Below, piece after piece: positions 3,940-16,400 of a stretch of 64,000 bases of DNA. How positions within the stretch are numbered: the stretch's first letter is position 1; each line of letters starts with the position of its first letter. The notes below the pieces were generated by a model that did no database searches, was not told the DNA's origin, and saw only the letters and a list, made by a program, of their open reading frames with translations. Location: positions 3,328,001-3,392,000 of the forward strand of contig OX638340.1 of the NCBI GenBank assembly GCA_951812955.1, read 5' to 3'. A program made the translations under genes and the position numbers. Source of the stretch: an uncultured Gemmatimonadota bacterium (GTDB lineage: Bacteria > JAAXHH01).

Positions 3940-4012
3940 GCGGGAATAGCTCAGTTGGTAGAGCATCAGCTTCCCAAGCTGAGGGTCGCGGGTTCGAGCC
4001 CCGTTTCCCGCC
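3940..4012 (+). tRNA. tRNA-Gly (anticodon CCC)
   Basis: Cloverleaf readable by eye. Acceptor GCGGGAA pairs with TTCCCGC. D-arm AGCTCAGTTGGTAGAGC, anticodon loop TTCCCAA (CCC), T-arm GGTTCGAGCCC. 73 nt; no encoded CCA. Confidence 0.9.
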
Positions 4013-8643: not shown

Positions 8644-9000
8644 TCAGCTTTCTTTTTCCGGCCTGGATTTCCTCCACCGGTCCAGCGCCGACTTCACGAG
8701 ATCCACCACCGTGTGCGTGGCCGAGGAGAACCCGGACTGGCCCGACATGCGCTCCAGCCGGACTTCGCCGTCCCTGACCACCAGCACGGCGACCGGTTGC
8801 ACGCCTCCGCCGCCGCCGGTGCCGCCGCGTTCCCCATCTTTTCCCGATGTGCCACCCCCGCCGAAGCCGAATCCGAGTTTGACCAGGGGGATGACCGTCG
8901 TCTTCCCGACTTCGACGGGATCGCCTACGACGGACTGTGCCTTCGCCACTTCCCTGAGTTCGCCCAGCGTGGTCTTGACAAGATTCTCCAGATCAGCCAT
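8644..9000 (-). CDS. GerW/YtfJ family protein
   Basis: About 118 aa with a conserved Gly-rich loop (LVKLGFGFGGGGTSG...GGTGGGGGV) flanked by beta-strand-like segments, as in GerW/YtfJ. Confidence 0.5.
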   Translation of the reverse strand: MADLENLVKTTLGELREVAKAQSVVGDPVEVGKTTVIPLVKLGFGFGGGGTSGKDGERGGTGGGGGVQPVAVLVVRDGEVRLERMSGQSGFSSATHTVVDLVKSALDRWRKSRPEKES

Positions 9001-9065
9001 GCAAATTCTCCATTTTGGTTATCGGACCGTAATTCCGGTTGCCGAACGAGTTACGAAATACCCGG

Positions 9066-9746
9066 TCAGTCGCCCCACAGTTCTTCCAGGCGTCGGTCCC
9101 GGCCGCAATTGTACCGGTAGAACTTGTACCGAAGCGGATTCTTGATGTAGTAATCCTGGTGGTATTCTTCGGCCCGGTAGAATCTCGAAGCCGGCGTGAT
9201 TTCGGTCACCACGCGATCGAAACGTCCGGAATCGACGATTTTCCGCTTGGAAGCCTCGGCCAGCGCTTTCTGTTCGGCGTTGTGGTAGAAAACACCCGCG
9301 CGGTACTGGCTGCCCTTGTCGCAGAACTGGCGGTCGTCCACCGTGGGATCTATGTTTACCCAGAATACGTCCAGCAGTTCCTGGTAGGTGATTTTCGACG
9401 GGTCGTAACGGATTTCCATGGCTTCCGTGTGTCCCGTACTGCCGGTGGATACCTCGCCGTAAGTGGGATTGCGCCGAGTTCCGCCGATGTATCCCGCTAT
9501 CGTGGAAATGACGCCGTCCAGTTCATCATAGGGCGGTTCCATGCACCAGAAGCACCCGCCCGCGAAGGTCGCCAGCGCAAACTCGCTGGTCTGCCCGGAC
9601 TGCCCGGATTGCCCGGACTGCCCGGTCTGCATGATCTCGCCGGATCGAGGAGCCGGTTCGCCCCCTGGCCTGGCCACGGTGTACACGGTAAACGCGAACA
9701 GTCCCGCTATGAGCGCGACCGGCAGGGTGTATTTTGAACGAAACAT
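9066..9746 (-). CDS. msrA: Peptide methionine sulfoxide reductase MsrA (secreted/periplasmic, with a low-complexity QSG-repeat linker)
   Basis: GCFWCME catalytic motif, plus HTEAMEI and YHQDYY. N-terminal signal/anchor helix followed by a QTGQSGQSGQSGQT linker. Confidence 0.9.
   Translation of the reverse strand: MFRSKYTLPVALIAGLFAFTVYTVARPGGEPAPRSGEIMQTGQSGQSGQSGQTSEFALATFAGGCFWCMEPPYDELDGVISTIAGYIGGTRRNPTYGEVSTGSTGHTEAMEIRYDPSKITYQELLDVFWVNIDPTVDDRQFCDKGSQYRAGVFYHNAEQKALAEASKRKIVDSGRFDRVVTEITPASRFYRAEEYHQDYYIKNPLRYKFYRYNCGRDRRLEELWGD
9591..9630. repeat. 9-bp tandem repeat (ctgcccgga x4) inside msrA, encoding the (QSG)n linker
   Basis: Read directly: ctgcccgga ctgcccgga ttgcccgga ctgcccggt. 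Confidence 0.8.
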
Positions 9747-9798
9747 GGGGGTCTCCTTTCTCGATGGACGGCCCGCCCCTCCTGCTCGGGGAGCGGTT

Positions 9799-12700
9799 CT
9801 ATCCGAACAGACTCAGCTGATTCGACGGCTTCGATTTAGCCCTTCTCCGCCGGCGCCGGTCCGGTCCTTGCGGCCGGTCGTACTGCTTCAACTGTTCTTC
9901 TATGTCGGTCAGGTAGGGCGACGGCCGGGTCGAACGCATCTCGCCGAAGAGCATGCGCTTGCTGGATCGTACCATGTAAAGCCGTTCCCTTGCACGGGTC
10001 ATGGCTACGTAAAACAGGCGGCGTTCCTCTTCCACGTCCGACGCCTCTCCGCCGTGTTGCAGGGGCACCAGGCCGTCTTCACAGCCCACGACGAAAACGA
10101 CAGGGAATTCCAGCCCCTTGGACGCGTGTAGTGTCATGAGATGCACATGTTCCGCCGCTTCGCCGTAAGCGTCGTATTCCTGGCTGAGCAGCAGCTTGTC
10201 GAGCAGGACCGGCAAATCCGTTTCGATTCGGGCGTACCGGGTCAATTCGCGCAGGCTTTCGTCCGCCTTGGGATAGCGCCACTTCAACTTGTCCCAGATG
10301 GAGGTGTGCGCCAGGTTTTGCAAAATGTGGACCGCCGTCCGATTCTCCAGGTCTGTATTGATCGTCTTCAGGTCGCTCATCAGGGCTTCGACGCCATTCC
10401 TGGATCGCTTCATGAGCAAGCGCGGGTGATCCATCAGTTCCCGTACGTGGTCGATCGTGACCTGCGTGCGCTGCTTCCACCGGTCTTCGATGAGTTCCAC
10501 TGTCCGGTCTCCCAGCCCGTCAATCGTCGACGACAGGCACCGCAGCGCCGAACCGGTGGTGACGGTCCGTCCGTCACCCAGTTGAAGCAGGGTCACCATC
10601 TCCTGCACCCCCGGCCTGTTGATGAGGGAAGTGTCCCCTGCGACCTGGTAGGGTATACCGCTGCGTTCGAAAGCTTCCACCAGGACGGACTGCTGGCTGT
10701 TCATCCGGTACAGCACGGCGAAGTCTCCGAAGGATCGTTCCTTGCCGGAATCCACTCCACCATCCAGCCGCCCCGAATCCTGGGAGAAATGGCTGGTTCC
10801 ACCCACCGCGCGTTCGATCTGGTGCACGACGTATTCGGCTTCGGCCCGGTCCGACGGGGTTTCCCGAATGACCAGGCCTCCCTGTATGTAGAGCGCGGCG
10901 ACCAGCGGCGGCGCCGATGCAGCGCCGGAAGCACGCATGACCTGGGACGAAGCGTCGAGCAGGTCGGCCGCGGAACGGTAGTTCTCCCGCAGGTACTGTA
11001 CCTTCGCACCTGGGAAATCGTCCACGAAGGAGTGAAAGTAACGGGTGTCCGCTCCGCGAAAGCCATAAATGGCCTGGTTGGGATCGCCGATGGCGGTTAT
11101 CCGGGCGCCGCCTTCCACCAGGATCTTCAGCAGGACGTGCTGGGCCGGATTGATGTCCTGGTACTCGTCCACGAAAACGAAATGGAACCGCTCGTGAACG
11201 CTCTGCCTGAACCGCTCGTCCGACCTCAGGAGCTTGGCGGTTTCCAGGATAACGTCGTCGAAATCCAGGAGCCCATGCCGCCGCAGGAGTCGGGTATAGG
11301 CCGAAACCGCTTCCGGGATTTCACCGCCGCGGCCCGACGCCTTCCATCGGGCGACCTCCTCCAGCCTCCTCCTCCGTTGCGCGGTGCTGTCCTGTGGCCA
11401 CTGCGCGCGTGCCAGCCGCTCCTGGTCGTCGGGCGTCGCCACGCTCAGGCTGAACGGGATGCTCGCATGGCGGGACCACTGGCGCATCAGGGCGAGACAG
11501 ATCCCGTGGAACGTACCGACCATGACATCCTGCGACCGGCCGTCGAGCAGCTCCTCCAATCGCGACTTCAGCTCACCGGCGGCCTTGTTGGTAAAGGTCA
11601 CGGCCAGCATATGGCCGGGCATGGTTTCATGACGCGCAAGGTAGGCCATGCGGTGGGTCAGGGTGTGGGTCTTTCCGGTGCCGGGTCCCGCCACGATCAG
11701 CAGATGCCCCTCGCGGTGTATTACGGCCTTCTGTTGATCTTCACTGAGGGGACCGTTCATCAGCGCTTCGTCGACCGGTGTCTCAAGCATTTCGAGCACG
11801 GTCACGGAAGGTTCCGAAGGCGCGGGTCCATGAGGGTCCGGCGAAGTATCCGCGACATCGGGTCCCGCGGACGCCGCCACACCCGGCCCTGTGGACGCCG
11901 CTATCTCAGGCCCCGTGGGTTCCGCCGTCTCCGGTACGGCTGGCAGTGGATCCGTTTCTTCGAACATCCCGTTGGTGTCCCCCGGAATCTCTTCCTCTGT
12001 CTCCGGACTGTCGTCCGACGCGGGATCCTTTCGCAACGGCTTCTTCACCTTCGCCGGAAATTCCTCCAGCAGGGCGATCTGCGTATCGCCGCCGAGGCGG
12101 TCTTCCGGGTTGAACAACTTGATCACCCCGTAATCTCCATCATACCCCGGGAGTATATCCACCTCTCCGACACGCATGCGGCGTATGCCCTCGGCGATCA
12201 GGGAACCGCCGACCTGCGCGATGTCGTCTTCCGGGATATCGAGGAGTATGTCGAGTTCGCTGCCGAGACGCGAGACCATGGCCTGGAAAATCGTATCCAC
12301 AGTTTTGGTTCCGGGCCCGACCTGTTTGGCCTCTCCGATGATCTCGGGCAGGGGTATCACACTGTAGAAGTGGCGCGCGCGGGGGGACTTTTCCCCCTCT
12401 TCGCGGTCCGAGAGTTCCTCCACGCGGGCCATGACCCCCACGGTCACAGTCTTGCCGCAATCCGGACACAGGCCCCCGGCGGCGATCGTTTCCCCGGGGT
12501 GCATCCTTCTCCCGCACTTCCTGTGCCCGTCATAGTGGTACTTGCCCTCTTCGGGATAGAACTCCACCGTCCCGGTCAGCCCTTCGTCTTCCGGATCGGA
12601 AAGGGCGCTGTAGATCGCGGGATAGCTGCAGGAAGTGTCGAACAGGGTGGTTTCCCGGCCGAGCTTTCCGGGAGAATGGGCATCGGAGTTGGAGACCAGC

Positions 12701-13350
12701 ACGTAGTCGTCGAGCTGTTGCAGCCGCCAGTTCATGAGCGGGTCGGACGAAAGGCCGGTTTCGACGGCGAAGATATGCTCCGTGAGGTCGCCGTAACAGT
12801 CCGATATGAGGTCGAAACCTCCCCTGGACCCCAGGGCCGAGAACCAGGGCGTCCAGATGTGGGCGGGGATGAGGCTGGCCATCGGGTCTGATTCGAGGGT
12901 GATCTCCAGCAGATCCCGGGAGTCCAGACCCAGGATGGGCCTGCCGTCCGACCGGATATTGCCGATGGCCCCCAACCGGGCCTGGATGGATTTGGCGGCC
13001 TCGAATCCGGGGGCAAGAATGATGTTATGAACTTTGCGCACGCGGCCGAGCCGTTTGTAGATGTTGGAGATCTCGACCGTCAGCATGAAACGCACCGGCG
13101 CCCGGCAGGCGGCCGGTACCTGATCCTGCATCACCCTTTCGTGCTCGGGTTTCAGGCGGAACAAACCCTCTTCGGCCGGCTGCAGTTTCTCTTCCAGCTC
13201 ATCCATCCATCCCGGATGAACGAAATCCCCGGTACCCACCACCCGGATACCCTTCAACTGGGCCCACTTGTAGAGGTGCTCCAGGTTCAGGTTCTTGCTG
13301 GTCGCCCTCGAGTAATGGGAGTGGAGATGCAGATCGGCGTGGAAGGGCAA
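9799..13350 (-). CDS. Fusion protein: N-terminal PHP-domain nuclease (Endonuclease Q / TIGR00375-like) + zinc ribbon + disordered linker + C-terminal UvrD/PcrA-like SF1 DNA helicase
   Basis: N-terminus MPFHADLHLHSHYSRATS...VVGTGDFVHPGW...NSDAHSPGKLGRE (PHP His/Asp metal-binding motifs), then CGRRMHPGE...CPDCGK (zinc ribbon). A Pro/Ala/Thr/Gly/Glu-rich linker with TGPEIAAS/TGPGVAAS repeats follows. The helicase part starts at LSEDQQKAV with Walker A GPGTGKT, then TFTNKAA (motif Ia), DEYQD (Walker B/motif II), YRS and VAMTRARERL (motif VI). 1183 codons with no internal stop; probable TTG start. Confidence 0.8.
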   Translation of the reverse strand: MPFHADLHLHSHYSRATSKNLNLEHLYKWAQLKGIRVVGTGDFVHPGWMDELEEKLQPAEEGLFRLKPEHERVMQDQVPAACRAPVRFMLTVEISNIYKRLGRVRKVHNIILAPGFEAAKSIQARLGAIGNIRSDGRPILGLDSRDLLEITLESDPMASLIPAHIWTPWFSALGSRGGFDLISDCYGDLTEHIFAVETGLSSDPLMNWRLQQLDDYVLVSNSDAHSPGKLGRETTLFDTSCSYPAIYSALSDPEDEGLTGTVEFYPEEGKYHYDGHRKCGRRMHPGETIAAGGLCPDCGKTVTVGVMARVEELSDREEGEKSPRARHFYSVIPLPEIIGEAKQVGPGTKTVDTIFQAMVSRLGSELDILLDIPEDDIAQVGGSLIAEGIRRMRVGEVDILPGYDGDYGVIKLFNPEDRLGGDTQIALLEEFPAKVKKPLRKDPASDDSPETEEEIPGDTNGMFEETDPLPAVPETAEPTGPEIAASTGPGVAASAGPDVADTSPDPHGPAPSEPSVTVLEMLETPVDEALMNGPLSEDQQKAVIHREGHLLIVAGPGTGKTHTLTHRMAYLARHETMPGHMLAVTFTNKAAGELKSRLEELLDGRSQDVMVGTFHGICLALMRQWSRHASIPFSLSVATPDDQERLARAQWPQDSTAQRRRRLEEVARWKASGRGGEIPEAVSAYTRLLRRHGLLDFDDVILETAKLLRSDERFRQSVHERFHFVFVDEYQDINPAQHVLLKILVEGGARITAIGDPNQAIYGFRGADTRYFHSFVDDFPGAKVQYLRENYRSAADLLDASSQVMRASGAASAPPLVAALYIQGGLVIRETPSDRAEAEYVVHQIERAVGGTSHFSQDSGRLDGGVDSGKERSFGDFAVLYRMNSQQSVLVEAFERSGIPYQVAGDTSLINRPGVQEMVTLLQLGDGRTVTTGSALRCLSSTIDGLGDRTVELIEDRWKQRTQVTIDHVRELMDHPRLLMKRSRNGVEALMSDLKTINTDLENRTAVHILQNLAHTSIWDKLKWRYPKADESLRELTRYARIETDLPVLLDKLLLSQEYDAYGEAAEHVHLMTLHASKGLEFPVVFVVGCEDGLVPLQHGGEASDVEEERRLFYVAMTRARERLYMVRSSKRMLFGEMRSTRPSPYLTDIEEQLKQYDRPQGPDRRRRRRAKSKPSNQLSLFG

Positions 13351-13496
13351 GGAGGCCCCCTATTCGTTGACCCATCGCGGATTCCGTCCCTCGGAAGCAC
13401 CTCGTTCCAGGTCCTTCCGGCGTGCTAAGCACCTGTTGGAAAGATGGGGGAATTCACGGGTACGGGCAAGGAGTTTGTAAGGCTCGGGACATGCAG

Positions 13497-16400
13497 TCAG
13501 GAAGCCGGAGTCTCGACCGCCTCGGCGGATTCCAGCACCTGTCCTCTCAGCCTGTTCCGGGCGCGGGCCACGAAGGCGAGGCCGTCCTCGAGGATGTAGT
13601 AACAGATGGGTACGAGAATCAGCGTGATGGCCGTGGCGAAGAGCACCCCGAATCCCAGGGAGATGGCCATCGGTATGAGGAACTGCGCCTGGAGGCTTTT
13701 CTCCAGCAGGATGGGCGTGAGTCCCGCGAAGGTCGTGAGCGAGGTAAGCAGTACGGGCCGGAATCGGGCTACGCCCGCGTTGCGGATGATCTCGTGCAGA
13801 TCCGCGCCCTCGCCTGCCCGTTCGCGCCCGCGGTTGATGAAGTCCACCAGCACCAGGCTGTCGTTCACCACGACGCCCGACAGCGCGACGATGCCGAACA
13901 GGGAAAGCAGCGAAATGGCGAATCCCATGATCAGGTGCCCCATTACGGCCCCCACGATGCCGAAGGGAATGACGCTCATGATGATCATGGGCTGCACGTA
14001 GGACTTGAACGGGATGGCCAGCAGTCCGTAGATCACGAGCAGTGCGACCAGGAAGCCGAAACTCAGGCTTTCGATGGACTCCTGCTGATTGCGCTGCTGT
14101 CCTTCGAGCGTGTAGGTCAGGTTGGGGTATTTCGCCATCAGTGAGGGCAGGTATGAAGAGGTGAGATCGGTCAGTATATCATTGGAGCTCGCGACGGCGT
14201 CGTCCACATCGGCGGTGATGGTGACGACGCGCTTCCGGTCCGTTCGCCGTATATTGGAATAGCCTCTGCCCATCTCTGCACGGGCGGCGAGCGAGAAGGG
14301 CACTTCGATTCCCGCCGGCGTACGGATCCGCATGTTCTCCATGTCCCCCAGGGACCGTCTGTCCGATTCGGGATAGCGCACCATGACGCGGACGTCGTCC
14401 CGGCCCCGTTGGATCCTTTGCGCTTCCTCGCCATAAAAGGCCTGCCGGACCTGCCGGGACAGACCCGCCATGGTGATGCCGAGGGCCTCGCCTTCGGGCG
14501 TGACGTGCAGTCTGATTTCCTGCTTGCCGGGCCGGAAATCGTCGGCGACGTCCATGACGCCGTCGTAATTGGCCACCGTCCGCTTCAACTCGGCGGTCGC
14601 CTGCTGCAGGTCATCCGGATTGGGGCTGGACAGCTCGATGTTGATCGCCTCGCCCGCGTTAAATAGCGAGGAGGTGAAAGAGAGTTCCACCACATCGGGA
14701 ATCGGTCCGATCAGTTCCCGCCAGTGGTTCACGATTTCTTCGCCGCTTATATTTCTGGTCTCTGATGGCGACAGGCCCAATACGACTTCCCCGATGTGGG
14801 ACGACGTAGCGGAGCCGGTGAGACTTCCGGCGTTCTGTTGCGCCCGGGCGGCATTCGGTTGTTCGCCGATGGCCGCCATGATGTTTCGTATCACGTGCGT
14901 ATCGCCCCCGGCATCGTCGCCGGGCATCTCGCCGCCAAGTTGTTTCTGCAGTTGAACGGCGCTGTCCTCGATCAGCGAAATGTACCGGTCGGTGACTACC
15001 ACGGGGGTCCCCTCGGCCAGGGTGAGGTGCGCCGATACGAACTCGTTCTCTACTGGGGGGAAAAACACGAAACGGAGGATGCCGCCGGCCACGAGTCCGA
15101 TGGTCAGGATGATCGCTCCCACCCCGATGGAAAGCGTGACGTACCGCCAGGCGAGCGCGTTCTTCAACAGGGGAACATATACGCCTTCCACGAAGCGCCG
15201 GAGCAGGCGGGACACGTTGTCCTGGAGTTCATGAAGCCACTTGTCGGCGTAGAAAAGCGTAAGGTAAAAGGGCCTGACCAGGACGAAAACATGGGGCAGC
15301 GGACTTTCCTTGCGCTCCGGCTGTCCGTGGCGGAGGTGAGTCGGCAGAATGAGCAGCGATTCGACCAGGGAAAAGAGCAGCATGAGGATGATTACGATGG
15401 GGAAAACCTCGAAGAACTTCCCCATGAGCCCATCTACGAAAAACATGGGCGAGAAGGCGACGATGGTCGTCAGGATCGCGAAGGTAATGGGCTTCGCGAT
15501 TTCCTGCACACCCATCCGTGCGGCCGTGCCCGGCTCCACACCCCTTTCCTGGTGCGCGTAGATGTTCTCCCCCGCTATGATGGCGTCGTCCACCACGATA
15601 CCCAGCACCATGATGAAGGCGAAAAGCGAAAGCATGTTGATTGAAGCGCCCAGCAGCGGCATCATCCAGAAGGTGCCCAGGAAGCAGATGACGATACCCA
15701 TGGCTACCCAGAACGCCAGCCGTATGCGCAGGAACAGCGCCAGGCAGAGAAAGACGAGCAGAAAGCCCAACTGGCCGTTGTTGACCATCAGATCGAGCCG
15801 GCTTTCGAGGAGACGGGACTGGTCCTGCCAGGAGATCAGCTCGATGCCGTCGGGCAGTTCCGACTGCTTCGCGGCCACGTAGCTGTGCACGGCGCCGGAG
15901 ACGTCCAGGATGTTCTCGTTGCCTACGCGGAATACCTTCACCAGGGCGGCCGGTTTACCGTCGAAACGGGAGAACACGTCCGTTTCGGCGAAGCCATCGA
16001 CGACCCGGGCCACGTGGCTGAGCAGGAGGCGGGTGCCGTCGGACCGGGACCGGAGCACGATCCGGTCGAACTCGGATCCGACCAGGGCCTGCCCCTTCGA
16101 CCGAAGCAGGATCTCGCCGCCGGGTGTCTTCACCGACCCTCCCGGCAGGTCGAGCGAGGAACTGCGCACGGCGCTGACGACTTCGGAGAACGTCAATCCA
16201 TAACGGCGAAGCGCGGCTTCCGACACCTCTATGGATATTTCGTACGGTCGTACGCTCGCAAGCTGCACCTGGCTGATTTCCGGCAGGTCCAGCAGGTCTT
16301 CCCGGATATCTTCGGCGAGCCGTTTCATGGAGGACTCGTCCAGGTTCCCGGCCACGGCGACGTCGATGACCTGGCGCCTGAAGATGATCTCCTGGATCAC

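Follow-up and report, generated by a model that had tools for sequence, protein, structure and literature searches.

Endonuclease Q (EndoQ) nicks DNA directly 5' of deoxyuridine (dU), deoxyinosine (dI), deoxyxanthosine (dX) and abasic (AP) sites, leaving a 3'-OH and a 5'-phosphate (PMC4357722). The literature regards this enzyme as chiefly archaeal, with homologues noted in a few bacterial genera, and it leaves open the step that follows the nick (PMC4357722, PMC4858679); the pathway drawn in the first EndoQ paper includes a step labelled 'removal by helicase activity' (PMC4357722). Here we describe a gene on the minus strand (9799..13350) of a 64-kb stretch of DNA from an uncultured Gemmatimonadota bacterium (contig OX638340.1; the whole stretch is called the window), which encodes an EndoQ module, a linker and a superfamily 1A (SF1A) helicase in a single polypeptide of 1183 amino acids (aa). 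Comparison with its relatives indicates that the protein is the fused version of a unit that is conserved in bacteria and consists of two genes, one for EndoQ and, downstream of it, one for a dedicated SF1A helicase. We consider it probable, if some way from certain, that the product is a bifunctional, clamp-tethered nick-and-unwind repair enzyme for deaminated or abasic bases, both halves of which would be catalytically competent. This reading rests on homology, fold, residue conservation, fusion or operon linkage, motifs and context.

To our knowledge, the only characterised bacterial EndoQs are those of Bacillus pumilus and B. subtilis (YqxK). As cited in PMC5961232, the Bacillus enzymes incise 5' of dU, dI and AP sites. 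They carry a homologous EndoQ module in a bacterium, yet belong to another clade than the protein described here. A Bacillales-type example, from Brevibacillus laterosporus (NZ_CP011075.1, L090 5545-6726), is a standalone endoQ of 393 aa located between a NUDIX hydrolase gene and spoIIM/fur/xerD/deoB, with no helicase nearby. Its product is 31% identical to the query module over aa 160-410 and differs from it in having a Cys4 zinc site and no C-terminal QxxLF.

Endonuclease Q and helicase modules

The EndoQ module (aa 1-418; 12097..13350, minus strand), comprising the PHP catalytic, zinc-binding and C-terminal helical domains, was delimited by the NCBIfam profile TIGR00375, by alignment to the Pyrococcus furiosus enzyme (PfuEndoQ) and by Foldseek. 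The entire TIGR00375 profile was matched (aa 5-410, E = 1.8e-52), with a score of 179 bits that lies below the curated cut-off of 326.6 for this hypothetical equivalog, which points to a distinct EndoQ clade and not to an equivalog of the characterised enzymes. PfuEndoQ (5ZB8) could be aligned end to end (aa 4-412, E = 5.9e-48), the identity to archaeal EndoQ being about 30%. When the N-terminal half was modelled by itself, with a shallow alignment as input (pTM 0.79), the top Foldseek match was again PfuEndoQ (E = 3.5e-29, template modelling (TM) scores of 0.72/0.75), while generic PHP phosphoesterases reached TM of ~0.3 and E of ~1e-3. The full-length AlphaFold2 model, for which a deeper alignment of 73 fused homologues was used, matched 5ZB8 and the EndoQ-DNA complex 7K30 with a TM of 0.87 and a root-mean-square deviation of 3.1 Å. 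In the Foldseek comparisons with PfuEndoQ (TM 0.72-0.87), ~415-425 columns were aligned, which take in all three subdomains. The three-domain fold is thereby shared with archaeal EndoQ (P. furiosus, Thermococcus kodakarensis). The EndoQ-like PHP nuclease with a zinc domain, which had been proposed in the initial annotation of this DNA, is borne out by profile, alignment and fold, and the structural comparison with Pyrococcus EndoQ suggested there gave an EndoQ fold (TM 0.72-0.87) and not that of a PHP esterase (~0.3).

PfuEndoQ binds its metals through H8, H10, E76, H84, H139 and D193, plus H195, and its lesion pocket and wedge consist of H139, T142, W144, E167, L168, G169, L170, S171, N191 and D193 (PMC5961232; PMC8307549). 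In the alignment, all metal ligands are present in the query (H8, H10, E93, H108, H164, D223, H225), as are the pocket and wedge residues H164, T167, W169, E197, G199, L200, S201, N221 and D223, only Pfu L168 being altered (T198). The set shared with archaeal EndoQ includes the His, Gly and Ser that exclude T and A. Conservation was followed in an alignment of 146 sequences, namely the query and 145 fused representatives of distinct 50%-identity clusters, and the seven metal ligands together with T167, E197, G199, L200 and S201 are each kept in at least 145 of them. The pocket Trp and Asn are less constant (128/146 each): 18 of the 146 fusions have His in place of the predicted base-flipping wedge Trp at aa 169 (nt 12844-12846; Pfu W144), and N221 varies (His, Ser, Cys) in at least 17. 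This variation suggests the existence of sub-clades with altered lesion handling.

The zinc-binding site (aa 275-298; 12457..12528, minus strand), located by homology to PfuEndoQ, is formed by H276-x2-C279...C295-x2-C298. A His thus stands at the position of the first Cys of the archaeal C4 site, giving a His-Cys3 site here against Cys4 there; this His is found in 144 of the 146 sequences and the three Cys in all of them. The zinc ribbon noticed initially is therefore present as a four-ligand site, with this ligand pattern and not the one given for it, CxxxxH...CPDC. The other motifs quoted for the N-terminal half lie at aa 4-14 (HADLHLHSHYS), 41-48 (GDFVHPGW) and 221-227 (NSDAHSP), with CPDC at 295-298.

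The C-terminal half (aa 533-1160; 9871..11754, minus strand) is an SF1A helicase core of UvrD/PcrA/Rep type, as defined by Pfam, alignment to PcrA and Foldseek. UvrD-helicase was matched at aa 535-780 (E = 6.8e-62) and UvrD_C at 787-1129 (E = 9.6e-42), so that both halves gave the profile matches (TIGR00375, UvrD-helicase, UvrD_C) that had been expected of them; the match to PcrA 1pjr had an E of 4.7e-81 and covered chain residues 11-648. The full-length model superposes on UvrD, PcrA and Rep with a TM of 0.80 over ~650 columns, which indicates that all four subdomains (1A, 1B, 2A and 2B) are present. Motifs I, Ia, II, III, IV, V and VI read GPGTGKT (aa 555-561), TFTNKAA (585-591), DEYQD (728-732), GDPNQAIYGFRGA, ENYRS, TLHASKGLEF and VAMTRARERL (1115-1124); all motifs quoted in the initial annotation were found at the expected places. 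The catalytic residues of motifs I, II, III, IV, V and VI are invariant or nearly so in the 146 sequences. The 2B regulatory subdomain corresponds to aa ~905-1053 (10192..10638, minus strand), a region which aligns to 2B of PcrA and appears as a gap in BLAST comparisons with the operon helicases described below. Beyond motif VI the protein continues for only 64 residues, for which the model predicts disorder; the last 24 form a basic tail (aa 1160-1183; 9802..9873, minus strand; pLDDT <50) with 8 Lys+Arg and 1 Asp+Glu, which ends ...RRRRRRAKSKPSNQLSLFG.

In UvrD and PcrA, a C-terminal Tudor domain binds RNA polymerase or UvrB. The short stretch after motif VI leaves no Tudor domain in the fusion, and the scores against the NCBIfam equivalog models are far below the cut-offs (PcrA 376/911, UvrD 319/1144 and Rep 326/951 bits). 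The helicase had been described as a complete UvrD/PcrA-type enzyme; this holds for the SF1A motifs and the four subdomains, but it is not a complete UvrD/PcrA orthologue. These data bear on the idea that the protein is a general-purpose UvrD/PcrA, working in nucleotide excision or mismatch repair or in replication-transcription conflicts, to which an extra domain has been added. PcrA, UvrD and Rep are its top NCBIfam matches and the fold is that of UvrD (TM 0.80), yet besides the low PcrA score and the missing RNA-polymerase-binding domain, the closest unfused relatives are helicases encoded next to EndoQ genes, which are ~48% identical and share a specific tail, so that a general role of this kind is regarded as very unlikely. 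The helicase of the fusion thus shares motifs and the 1A/1B/2A/2B layout with UvrD, PcrA and Rep, while it forms a clade with the EndoQ-adjacent helicases and carries, in place of the Tudor domain, a basic tail with QLSLF. A second UvrD-like or EndoQ-like gene was not found in the window. A UvrD-like motor is likewise combined with a nuclease in AddA, RecB and AdnB. In AddA and RecB the nuclease is a C-terminal PD-(D/E)XK domain and the enzymes act at DNA ends, whereas the matches of the query to them are partial and limited to the motor domain, and no PD-(D/E)XK domain is found before the protein ends.

In the AlphaFold2 model the two confident modules (aa 1-421 and 533-1160) are joined by a segment with pLDDT of ~30, the tail from aa 1160 to 1183 also being of low confidence. 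This linker (aa 422-527; 11770..12087, minus strand) is rich in Pro, Ala, Glu and Thr and acidic, with 18 Pro, 24 Asp+Glu and 5 Lys+Arg among its 106 residues. Across the family the spacing between the modules ranges from 48 to 208 aa (median 86) and the sequence is not conserved. Its disorder and composition agree with the repetitive disordered linker initially described, but the repeats amount to two or three imperfect octapeptides, TGPEIAAS/TGPGVAAS (aa 479-494) followed by AGPDVADT (aa 479-502 for all three; 11845..11916, minus strand), and no DNA-level tandem repeat was reported in the linker by TRF. At the position of the octapeptides, a syntenic relative with 92% identity (L001) has different local duplications.

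Integrity and distribution of the fusion

The open reading frame (ORF) of 1183 aa runs uninterrupted along 9799-13350 in the ORF list of the window, with the stop codon at 9799-9801. There is little room for another N-terminus, because the start codon, TTG, is preceded at a distance of 4 codons by an in-frame TAG, and archaeal EndoQ can be aligned from residue 4 onwards. A protein of identical sequence, P0271, occurs in NCBI/ENA on a 3.8-Mb contig; this entry and every listed relative have a precomputed match to PF27218 (MJ0043_C). Relatives of 80-96% identity, labelled as Gemmatimonadota metagenome-assembled genomes and named 'AAA family ATPase' or 'UvrD-helicase domain-containing protein', are full-length (1164-1258 aa), and all of their linker indels are in frame. 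In L001, too, the EndoQ domain, the linker and the start of the helicase share one ORF.

The family was followed by an exhaustive HMMER search of 1.84 billion cluster representatives, among which the best 150 (50%-identity clusters) were examined, and by a scan of one genome per GTDB species, which gave at least 600 EndoQ-like loci. All 150 representatives are fused proteins of 850-1370 aa. Of the best 80 among these at least 600 loci, 60 carry an intact fusion, another 6 a fusion cut off by the contig end and 2 a fusion that is subsequently broken; in 6 a helicase gene lies 32-271 nt downstream, 4 have no helicase and in 2 the contig end is too near. EndoQ is therefore linked to a helicase in 74 of the 78 informative loci (68 fused and 6 adjacent; 95%), a proportion that was obtained for the 80 loci nearest to this clade and does not extend to EndoQ homologues in general. 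The survey of homologues proposed at the outset has thus shown a conserved fusion, with housekeeping neighbours, and the statement that EndoQ and UvrD are normally separate proteins applies to the characterised archaeal and Bacillales enzymes but not to this clade. The hosts belong to Gemmatimonadota, Actinomycetota, Myxococcota, Desulfobacterota, Chloroflexota, Planctomycetota, Omnitrophota and other phyla, and cultured ones include Micromonospora, Streptomyces, Actinoallomurus, Streptomonospora, Plantactinospora, Dactylosporangium, Sorangium and Desulfonema magnum.

A frameshift or misassembly that merged two adjacent genes might be suspected, as unfused adjacent gene pairs do occur in some lineages and the gene is split in the assembly of L001. 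However, the genomes of at least 60 species contain intact fusions, some of these genomes being finished chromosomes of cultured bacteria, all 150 of the top cluster representatives are fused, and the junction is in frame in relatives from independent assemblies. In L001 (ENA contig ctg522382l; 6565-9845 and 10001-13691), the AcrB gene and the EndoQ-helicase gene each appear as two overlapping ORFs; the latter gene is broken within the helicase and not where the two modules join. As its neighbour AcrB is affected as well, assembly errors are indicated, and such splits are typical of long-read indel errors rather than of true pseudogenes. An artefactual origin was accordingly rejected, its likelihood being practically negligible, and the single polypeptide first proposed is upheld. 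On the opposite strand an ORF of 916 aa (10141-12891, plus strand) was considered as a gene and rejected as a high-GC shadow ORF, since similar antisense ORFs, found in dozens of related loci, recur wherever the sense gene is conserved; in high-GC DNA the conservation of a shadow ORF is no evidence of coding. A promoter and terminator scan of 8900-13700 gave nothing exceeding shuffled expectation.

Outside its own lineage, the nearest relatives of the EndoQ module (~70% identity) are standalone proteins of 428 aa, and in three further standalone-EndoQ loci with unrelated surroundings a gene of a UvrD-type helicase follows directly on the same strand. These partner helicases are ~48% identical to the query helicase and have a common tail, ...SPFLTDIEE.LK.Y...QxSLF. 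As the unfused form is an operon, the functions of EndoQ and helicase are linked independently of fusion, and as the split forms are scattered among the fused ones by nearest-neighbour identity, fusion or fission has happened repeatedly. The near-invariance of the catalytic residues of both halves in the 145 representatives further indicates that both activities are under selection.

The split loci show some other features. Several partner helicases lack most of 2B: the distance between motifs IV and V, 282 aa in the query, is 79-142 aa in L002, L003 and L005, and the short partner helicases of 426-533 aa (L003 7287-8567, L002 7247-8848, L005 7690-9237, as well as L010, L012, L016 and L020) belong to this group. 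The adjacent helicases of L049 and L069 (~620-670 aa) retain 2B, so its loss is not strictly linked to the split state. An ORF of 126 aa with a hydrophobic N-terminus and no Pfam match is located between the EndoQ and helicase genes of L005 (7295-7675) and recurs in L006, a related contig. Of the four loci without a helicase, three (L026, L063 and L074; match 6001-~7320 in each) have lost the C-terminal QxxLF and possess basic or hydrophobic tails; they may be decayed remnants of fusions.

Thousands of fused sequences are present in public databases under generic names, so the family is already plentiful there and is uncharacterised rather than unseen. Standalone EndoQs of ~430 aa (e.g. P0011, P0030, P0036, P0037, P0078) are named 'DNA helicase UvrD' or 'ATP-dependent DNA helicase PcrA' in NCBI/JGI, names that probably spread from fused relatives, the fusions themselves being named 'AAA family ATPase'. 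In open-access papers and bioRxiv no description of an EndoQ-helicase fusion or operon was found, in agreement with the earlier remark that the architecture is not a described enzyme.

Clamp-binding-type motifs and the proposed repair mechanism

The bacterial beta-clamp consensus is QL[S/D]LF or, more generally, QxxLF, often in a terminal position; PolC, for example, ends in QLSLF (PMC12309361). The query carries QLSLF at its C-terminus (aa 1178-1182, then G; 9805..9819, minus strand), in the low-pLDDT tail (...KPSNQLSLFG), and a second motif of this type, QIALL (aa 424-428; 12067..12081, minus strand; ...GGDTQIALLEEF), at the site where standalone EndoQs end in QLxLF. A strict motif was found in the last 12 residues of 218 of 265 fused proteins and a relaxed one in the last 15 residues of 247; among the 145 diverse fused representatives the strict motif occurs in the last 12 residues of 105, against 0.41 expected from shuffling, and in 70 of these 105 it forms the very last five residues. 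The relaxed motif also stands within the last 15 residues of 108 of 115 standalone EndoQs, and Q[LM]xLF terminates all partner helicases examined. The internal copy follows ~10 residues past the EndoQ module, with the column consensus G-Q-x-S-L-F (Q 114, L 113 and F 119 of 146); a relaxed version is present in 102 of the 146 aligned fusions, query included (6.1 expected from shuffling), a strict one in 25, and 90 fusions have the internal and terminal motifs together. A looser internal than terminal motif would be expected if tethering made one docking motif partly redundant.

In Thermococcales, EndoQ carries a C-terminal PCNA-interacting (PIP) box, which binds PCNA (KD 55 nM) and stimulates cleavage, and beta-clamp-like motifs in bacterial EndoQ homologues have been remarked on (PMC4858679). 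In both groups, then, a clamp-interaction motif ends the EndoQ module, a PIP box in archaea and QxxLF here. We infer that QIALL and QLSLF dock the enzyme on the beta sliding clamp, as a bacterial counterpart of the stimulation by PCNA through the PIP box. Besides this bacterial type of motif, the query differs from archaeal EndoQ by its covalently attached SF1A helicase and its bacterial host, the closest relatives being labelled Gemmatimonadota.

SF1A enzymes translocate 3'-to-5' on single-stranded DNA (ssDNA). Their monomers are autoinhibited by 2B until they dimerise or are activated by a partner, such as RepD for PcrA, MutL for UvrD and PriC for Rep, and deletion of 2B also activates them, as in Rep (PMC13238157). 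By analogy with the archaeal and Bacillus enzymes, the EndoQ module would flip out a dU, dI, dX or AP-site nucleotide and nick the strand immediately 5' of it. The flexible linker of ~100 aa would keep the helicase within reach of the nick, where it would load, move 3'-to-5' along the intact strand and peel off the lesion-bearing 5' end, after which a clamp-bound polymerase might extend the 3'-OH and a 5' nuclease remove the flap. The EndoQ nickase domain may itself be the partner by which the SF1A monomer is freed from autoinhibition by 2B. With its two QxxLF-type motifs the enzyme would dock on both clefts of the clamp dimer, and in the split form one motif per protein would put both proteins on one clamp. 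The same logic, in which a site-specific nick is the loading point of a partner-activated 3'-5' SF1A motor, may be recognised in RepD-PcrA and MutH/MutL-UvrD; there, however, separate and unrelated proteins are involved, whereas the nickase considered here is predicted to be lesion-specific and is covalently tethered.

Several points weigh against such a nick-and-unwind enzyme. In most bacteria, nick translation by Pol I could remove the 5' lesion without a helicase. The Bacillales-type clade, in the one example given above, has an endoQ without an adjacent helicase, from which it would follow that a helicase is not intrinsically required for EndoQ repair, and the high proportion of linked loci comes from the nearest part of the EndoQ family. 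The lesion specificity, the polarity of the helicase and the binding to the clamp are all predicted from sequence. The scores below the TIGR00375 and PcrA/UvrD cut-offs indicate a separate clade, whose specificity could differ, and the internal QIALL of the query deviates from the consensus at its last position.

Another possible explanation is that the protein is a repair enzyme whose motor does not serve strand excision, but drives the scanning for lesions with ATP, possibly together with the clamp and either ahead of or behind the replication fork, or releases the tightly bound EndoQ domain from the nicked product so that the enzyme can turn over, much as UvrD releases UvrC and the excised oligonucleotide. 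The conservation, linkage and motif evidence would fit this explanation equally, and an SF1A monomer, though processive as a translocase on ssDNA, unwinds poorly unless it is activated (PMC13238157). Moreover, EndoQ acts on both ssDNA and double-stranded DNA and interacts with PCNA, which led the authors of a review to suggest a replication-associated role (PMC8307549). Sequence data cannot tell scanning or release from strand displacement; the loss of 2B from several unfused partner helicases would, by analogy with Rep, point to active helicases rather than translocases. Overall, a motor used for scanning or release is considered unlikely.

Genomic context and implications for bacterial EndoQ

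The gene belongs to a minus-strand block that encodes an outer-membrane factor (OEP), a resistance-nodulation-division (RND) adaptor, AcrB, the fusion, MsrA, a YtfJ-like protein, DUF2953 and IlvD, and the block is syntenic in L001. In other phyla the fused homologues are surrounded by unrelated genes of metabolism. When the ORFs of 87 loci were clustered all against all, no family apart from the unit itself recurred across phyla, and no flap nuclease, ligase, glycosylase or cas gene emerged as a conserved accessory neighbour; the recurrent clusters were either shadow ORFs of the gene itself or reflected stable synteny within Micromonosporaceae (a metallophosphoesterase, a fructosamine-kinase-like protein and an EamA transporter). 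In the ORF of the downstream MsrA, a peptide methionine sulfoxide reductase (9066-9746, minus strand), a hydrophobic segment at the N-terminus leads into a QSG tripeptide repeat (QTGQSGQSGQSGQT). This arrangement suggests that the enzyme is anchored in the membrane or exported and has a short flexible spacer. Scans of the window with Rfam and ARAGORN gave a single structured RNA, a tRNA-Gly with anticodon CCC (3940-4012, plus strand), far from the gene.

A defence effector had initially been regarded as equally possible. Directed against phages or plasmids, such an effector would use EndoQ to attack foreign DNA that contains uracil, is deaminated or is unusual in some other way, with the helicase feeding or processing this DNA. 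In Gabija, GajB requires the OLD-family partner GajA. The helicase half does match many GajB models of PADLOC (best E = 1.6e-87), but these, with DRT helicase models, are generic matches reflecting UvrD similarity; the neighbours here are AcrB and MsrA, there is no GajA/OLD partner nearby, and no OLD nuclease is present in any inspected locus. The EndoQ half and the linker had no PADLOC match even at E <= 10. At the query locus and 8 other inspected loci no cas or defence genes were found, the neighbourhoods being of housekeeping type. Relatives of the EndoQ module were absent from 50,697 phage genomes (tblastn) and from a scan of viral contigs, and among 72,556 plasmids (tblastn) only one carried the module, a 733-kb Brevibacillus replicon. 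This 'plasmid' holds core genes of chromosomal type and may be a chromid or a mislabelled replicon.

The layout is superficially similar to that of Wukong, a CRISPR-supervised defence protein of ~1026 aa with an N-terminal PHP nuclease and a C-terminal ATPase. Its gene is reported to lie in type I-C loci, with cas3 and cas5c on either side, and the protein to degrade many forms of DNA and protect against T-even phages, both active sites being needed for immunity (bioRxiv 10.1101/2024.12.27.630466). Compared by its published description only, Wukong is likewise a single protein of similar length with an N-terminal PHP domain; it is, however, termed an 'exonuclease plus ATPase', its authors calling its C-terminal part an 'ATPase' and GajB a 'UvrD-like helicase' in the same text (bioRxiv 10.1101/2024.12.27.630466), and no cas genes are found in the region of the window around the fusion or in the inspected loci. 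An antiviral role has also been suggested for Bacillus EndoQ, which is not inhibited by phage Ugi (review, PMC8307549). Against a role in defence also stand the invariance of the pocket residues that exclude normal T and A and the clamp-binding motifs, which are typical of replication and repair proteins. The two possibilities are thus not equal: the syntenic housekeeping context, the lack of PADLOC and phage matches and the clamp-type motifs favour repair, and defence is judged quite unlikely.

What is described here is a clade of EndoQ that has an SF1A helicase dedicated to it, in most cases by fusion, together with two clamp-type motifs; it is not categorically new. The at least 600 species loci show that EndoQ homologues are common in bacteria and correct the view that they are rare, and the names of standalone and fused proteins expose a systematic annotation problem. 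The linkage to a dedicated helicase and the beta-clamp-type tails provide a testable model of the downstream step, helicase-driven strand removal on a clamp platform. Orthologues occur in cultured Micromonospora, Streptomyces, Sorangium and Desulfonema, and established genetic tools exist for some of these genera; the fusion also offers a natural system for studying the activation of an SF1A monomer by a partner domain. In a broader and more tentative interpretation, plausible but with somewhat less than an even chance of being correct, the EndoQ-helicase unit would be a self-contained, clamp-docked 'nick-and-peel' machine, in which the lesion-specific nickase both loads and activates its own motor, and would represent the main bacterial form of EndoQ and an unrecognised, widespread glycosylase-independent pathway for deaminated and abasic bases. 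If true, this would overturn the view of EndoQ as an archaeal enzyme present in few bacteria.

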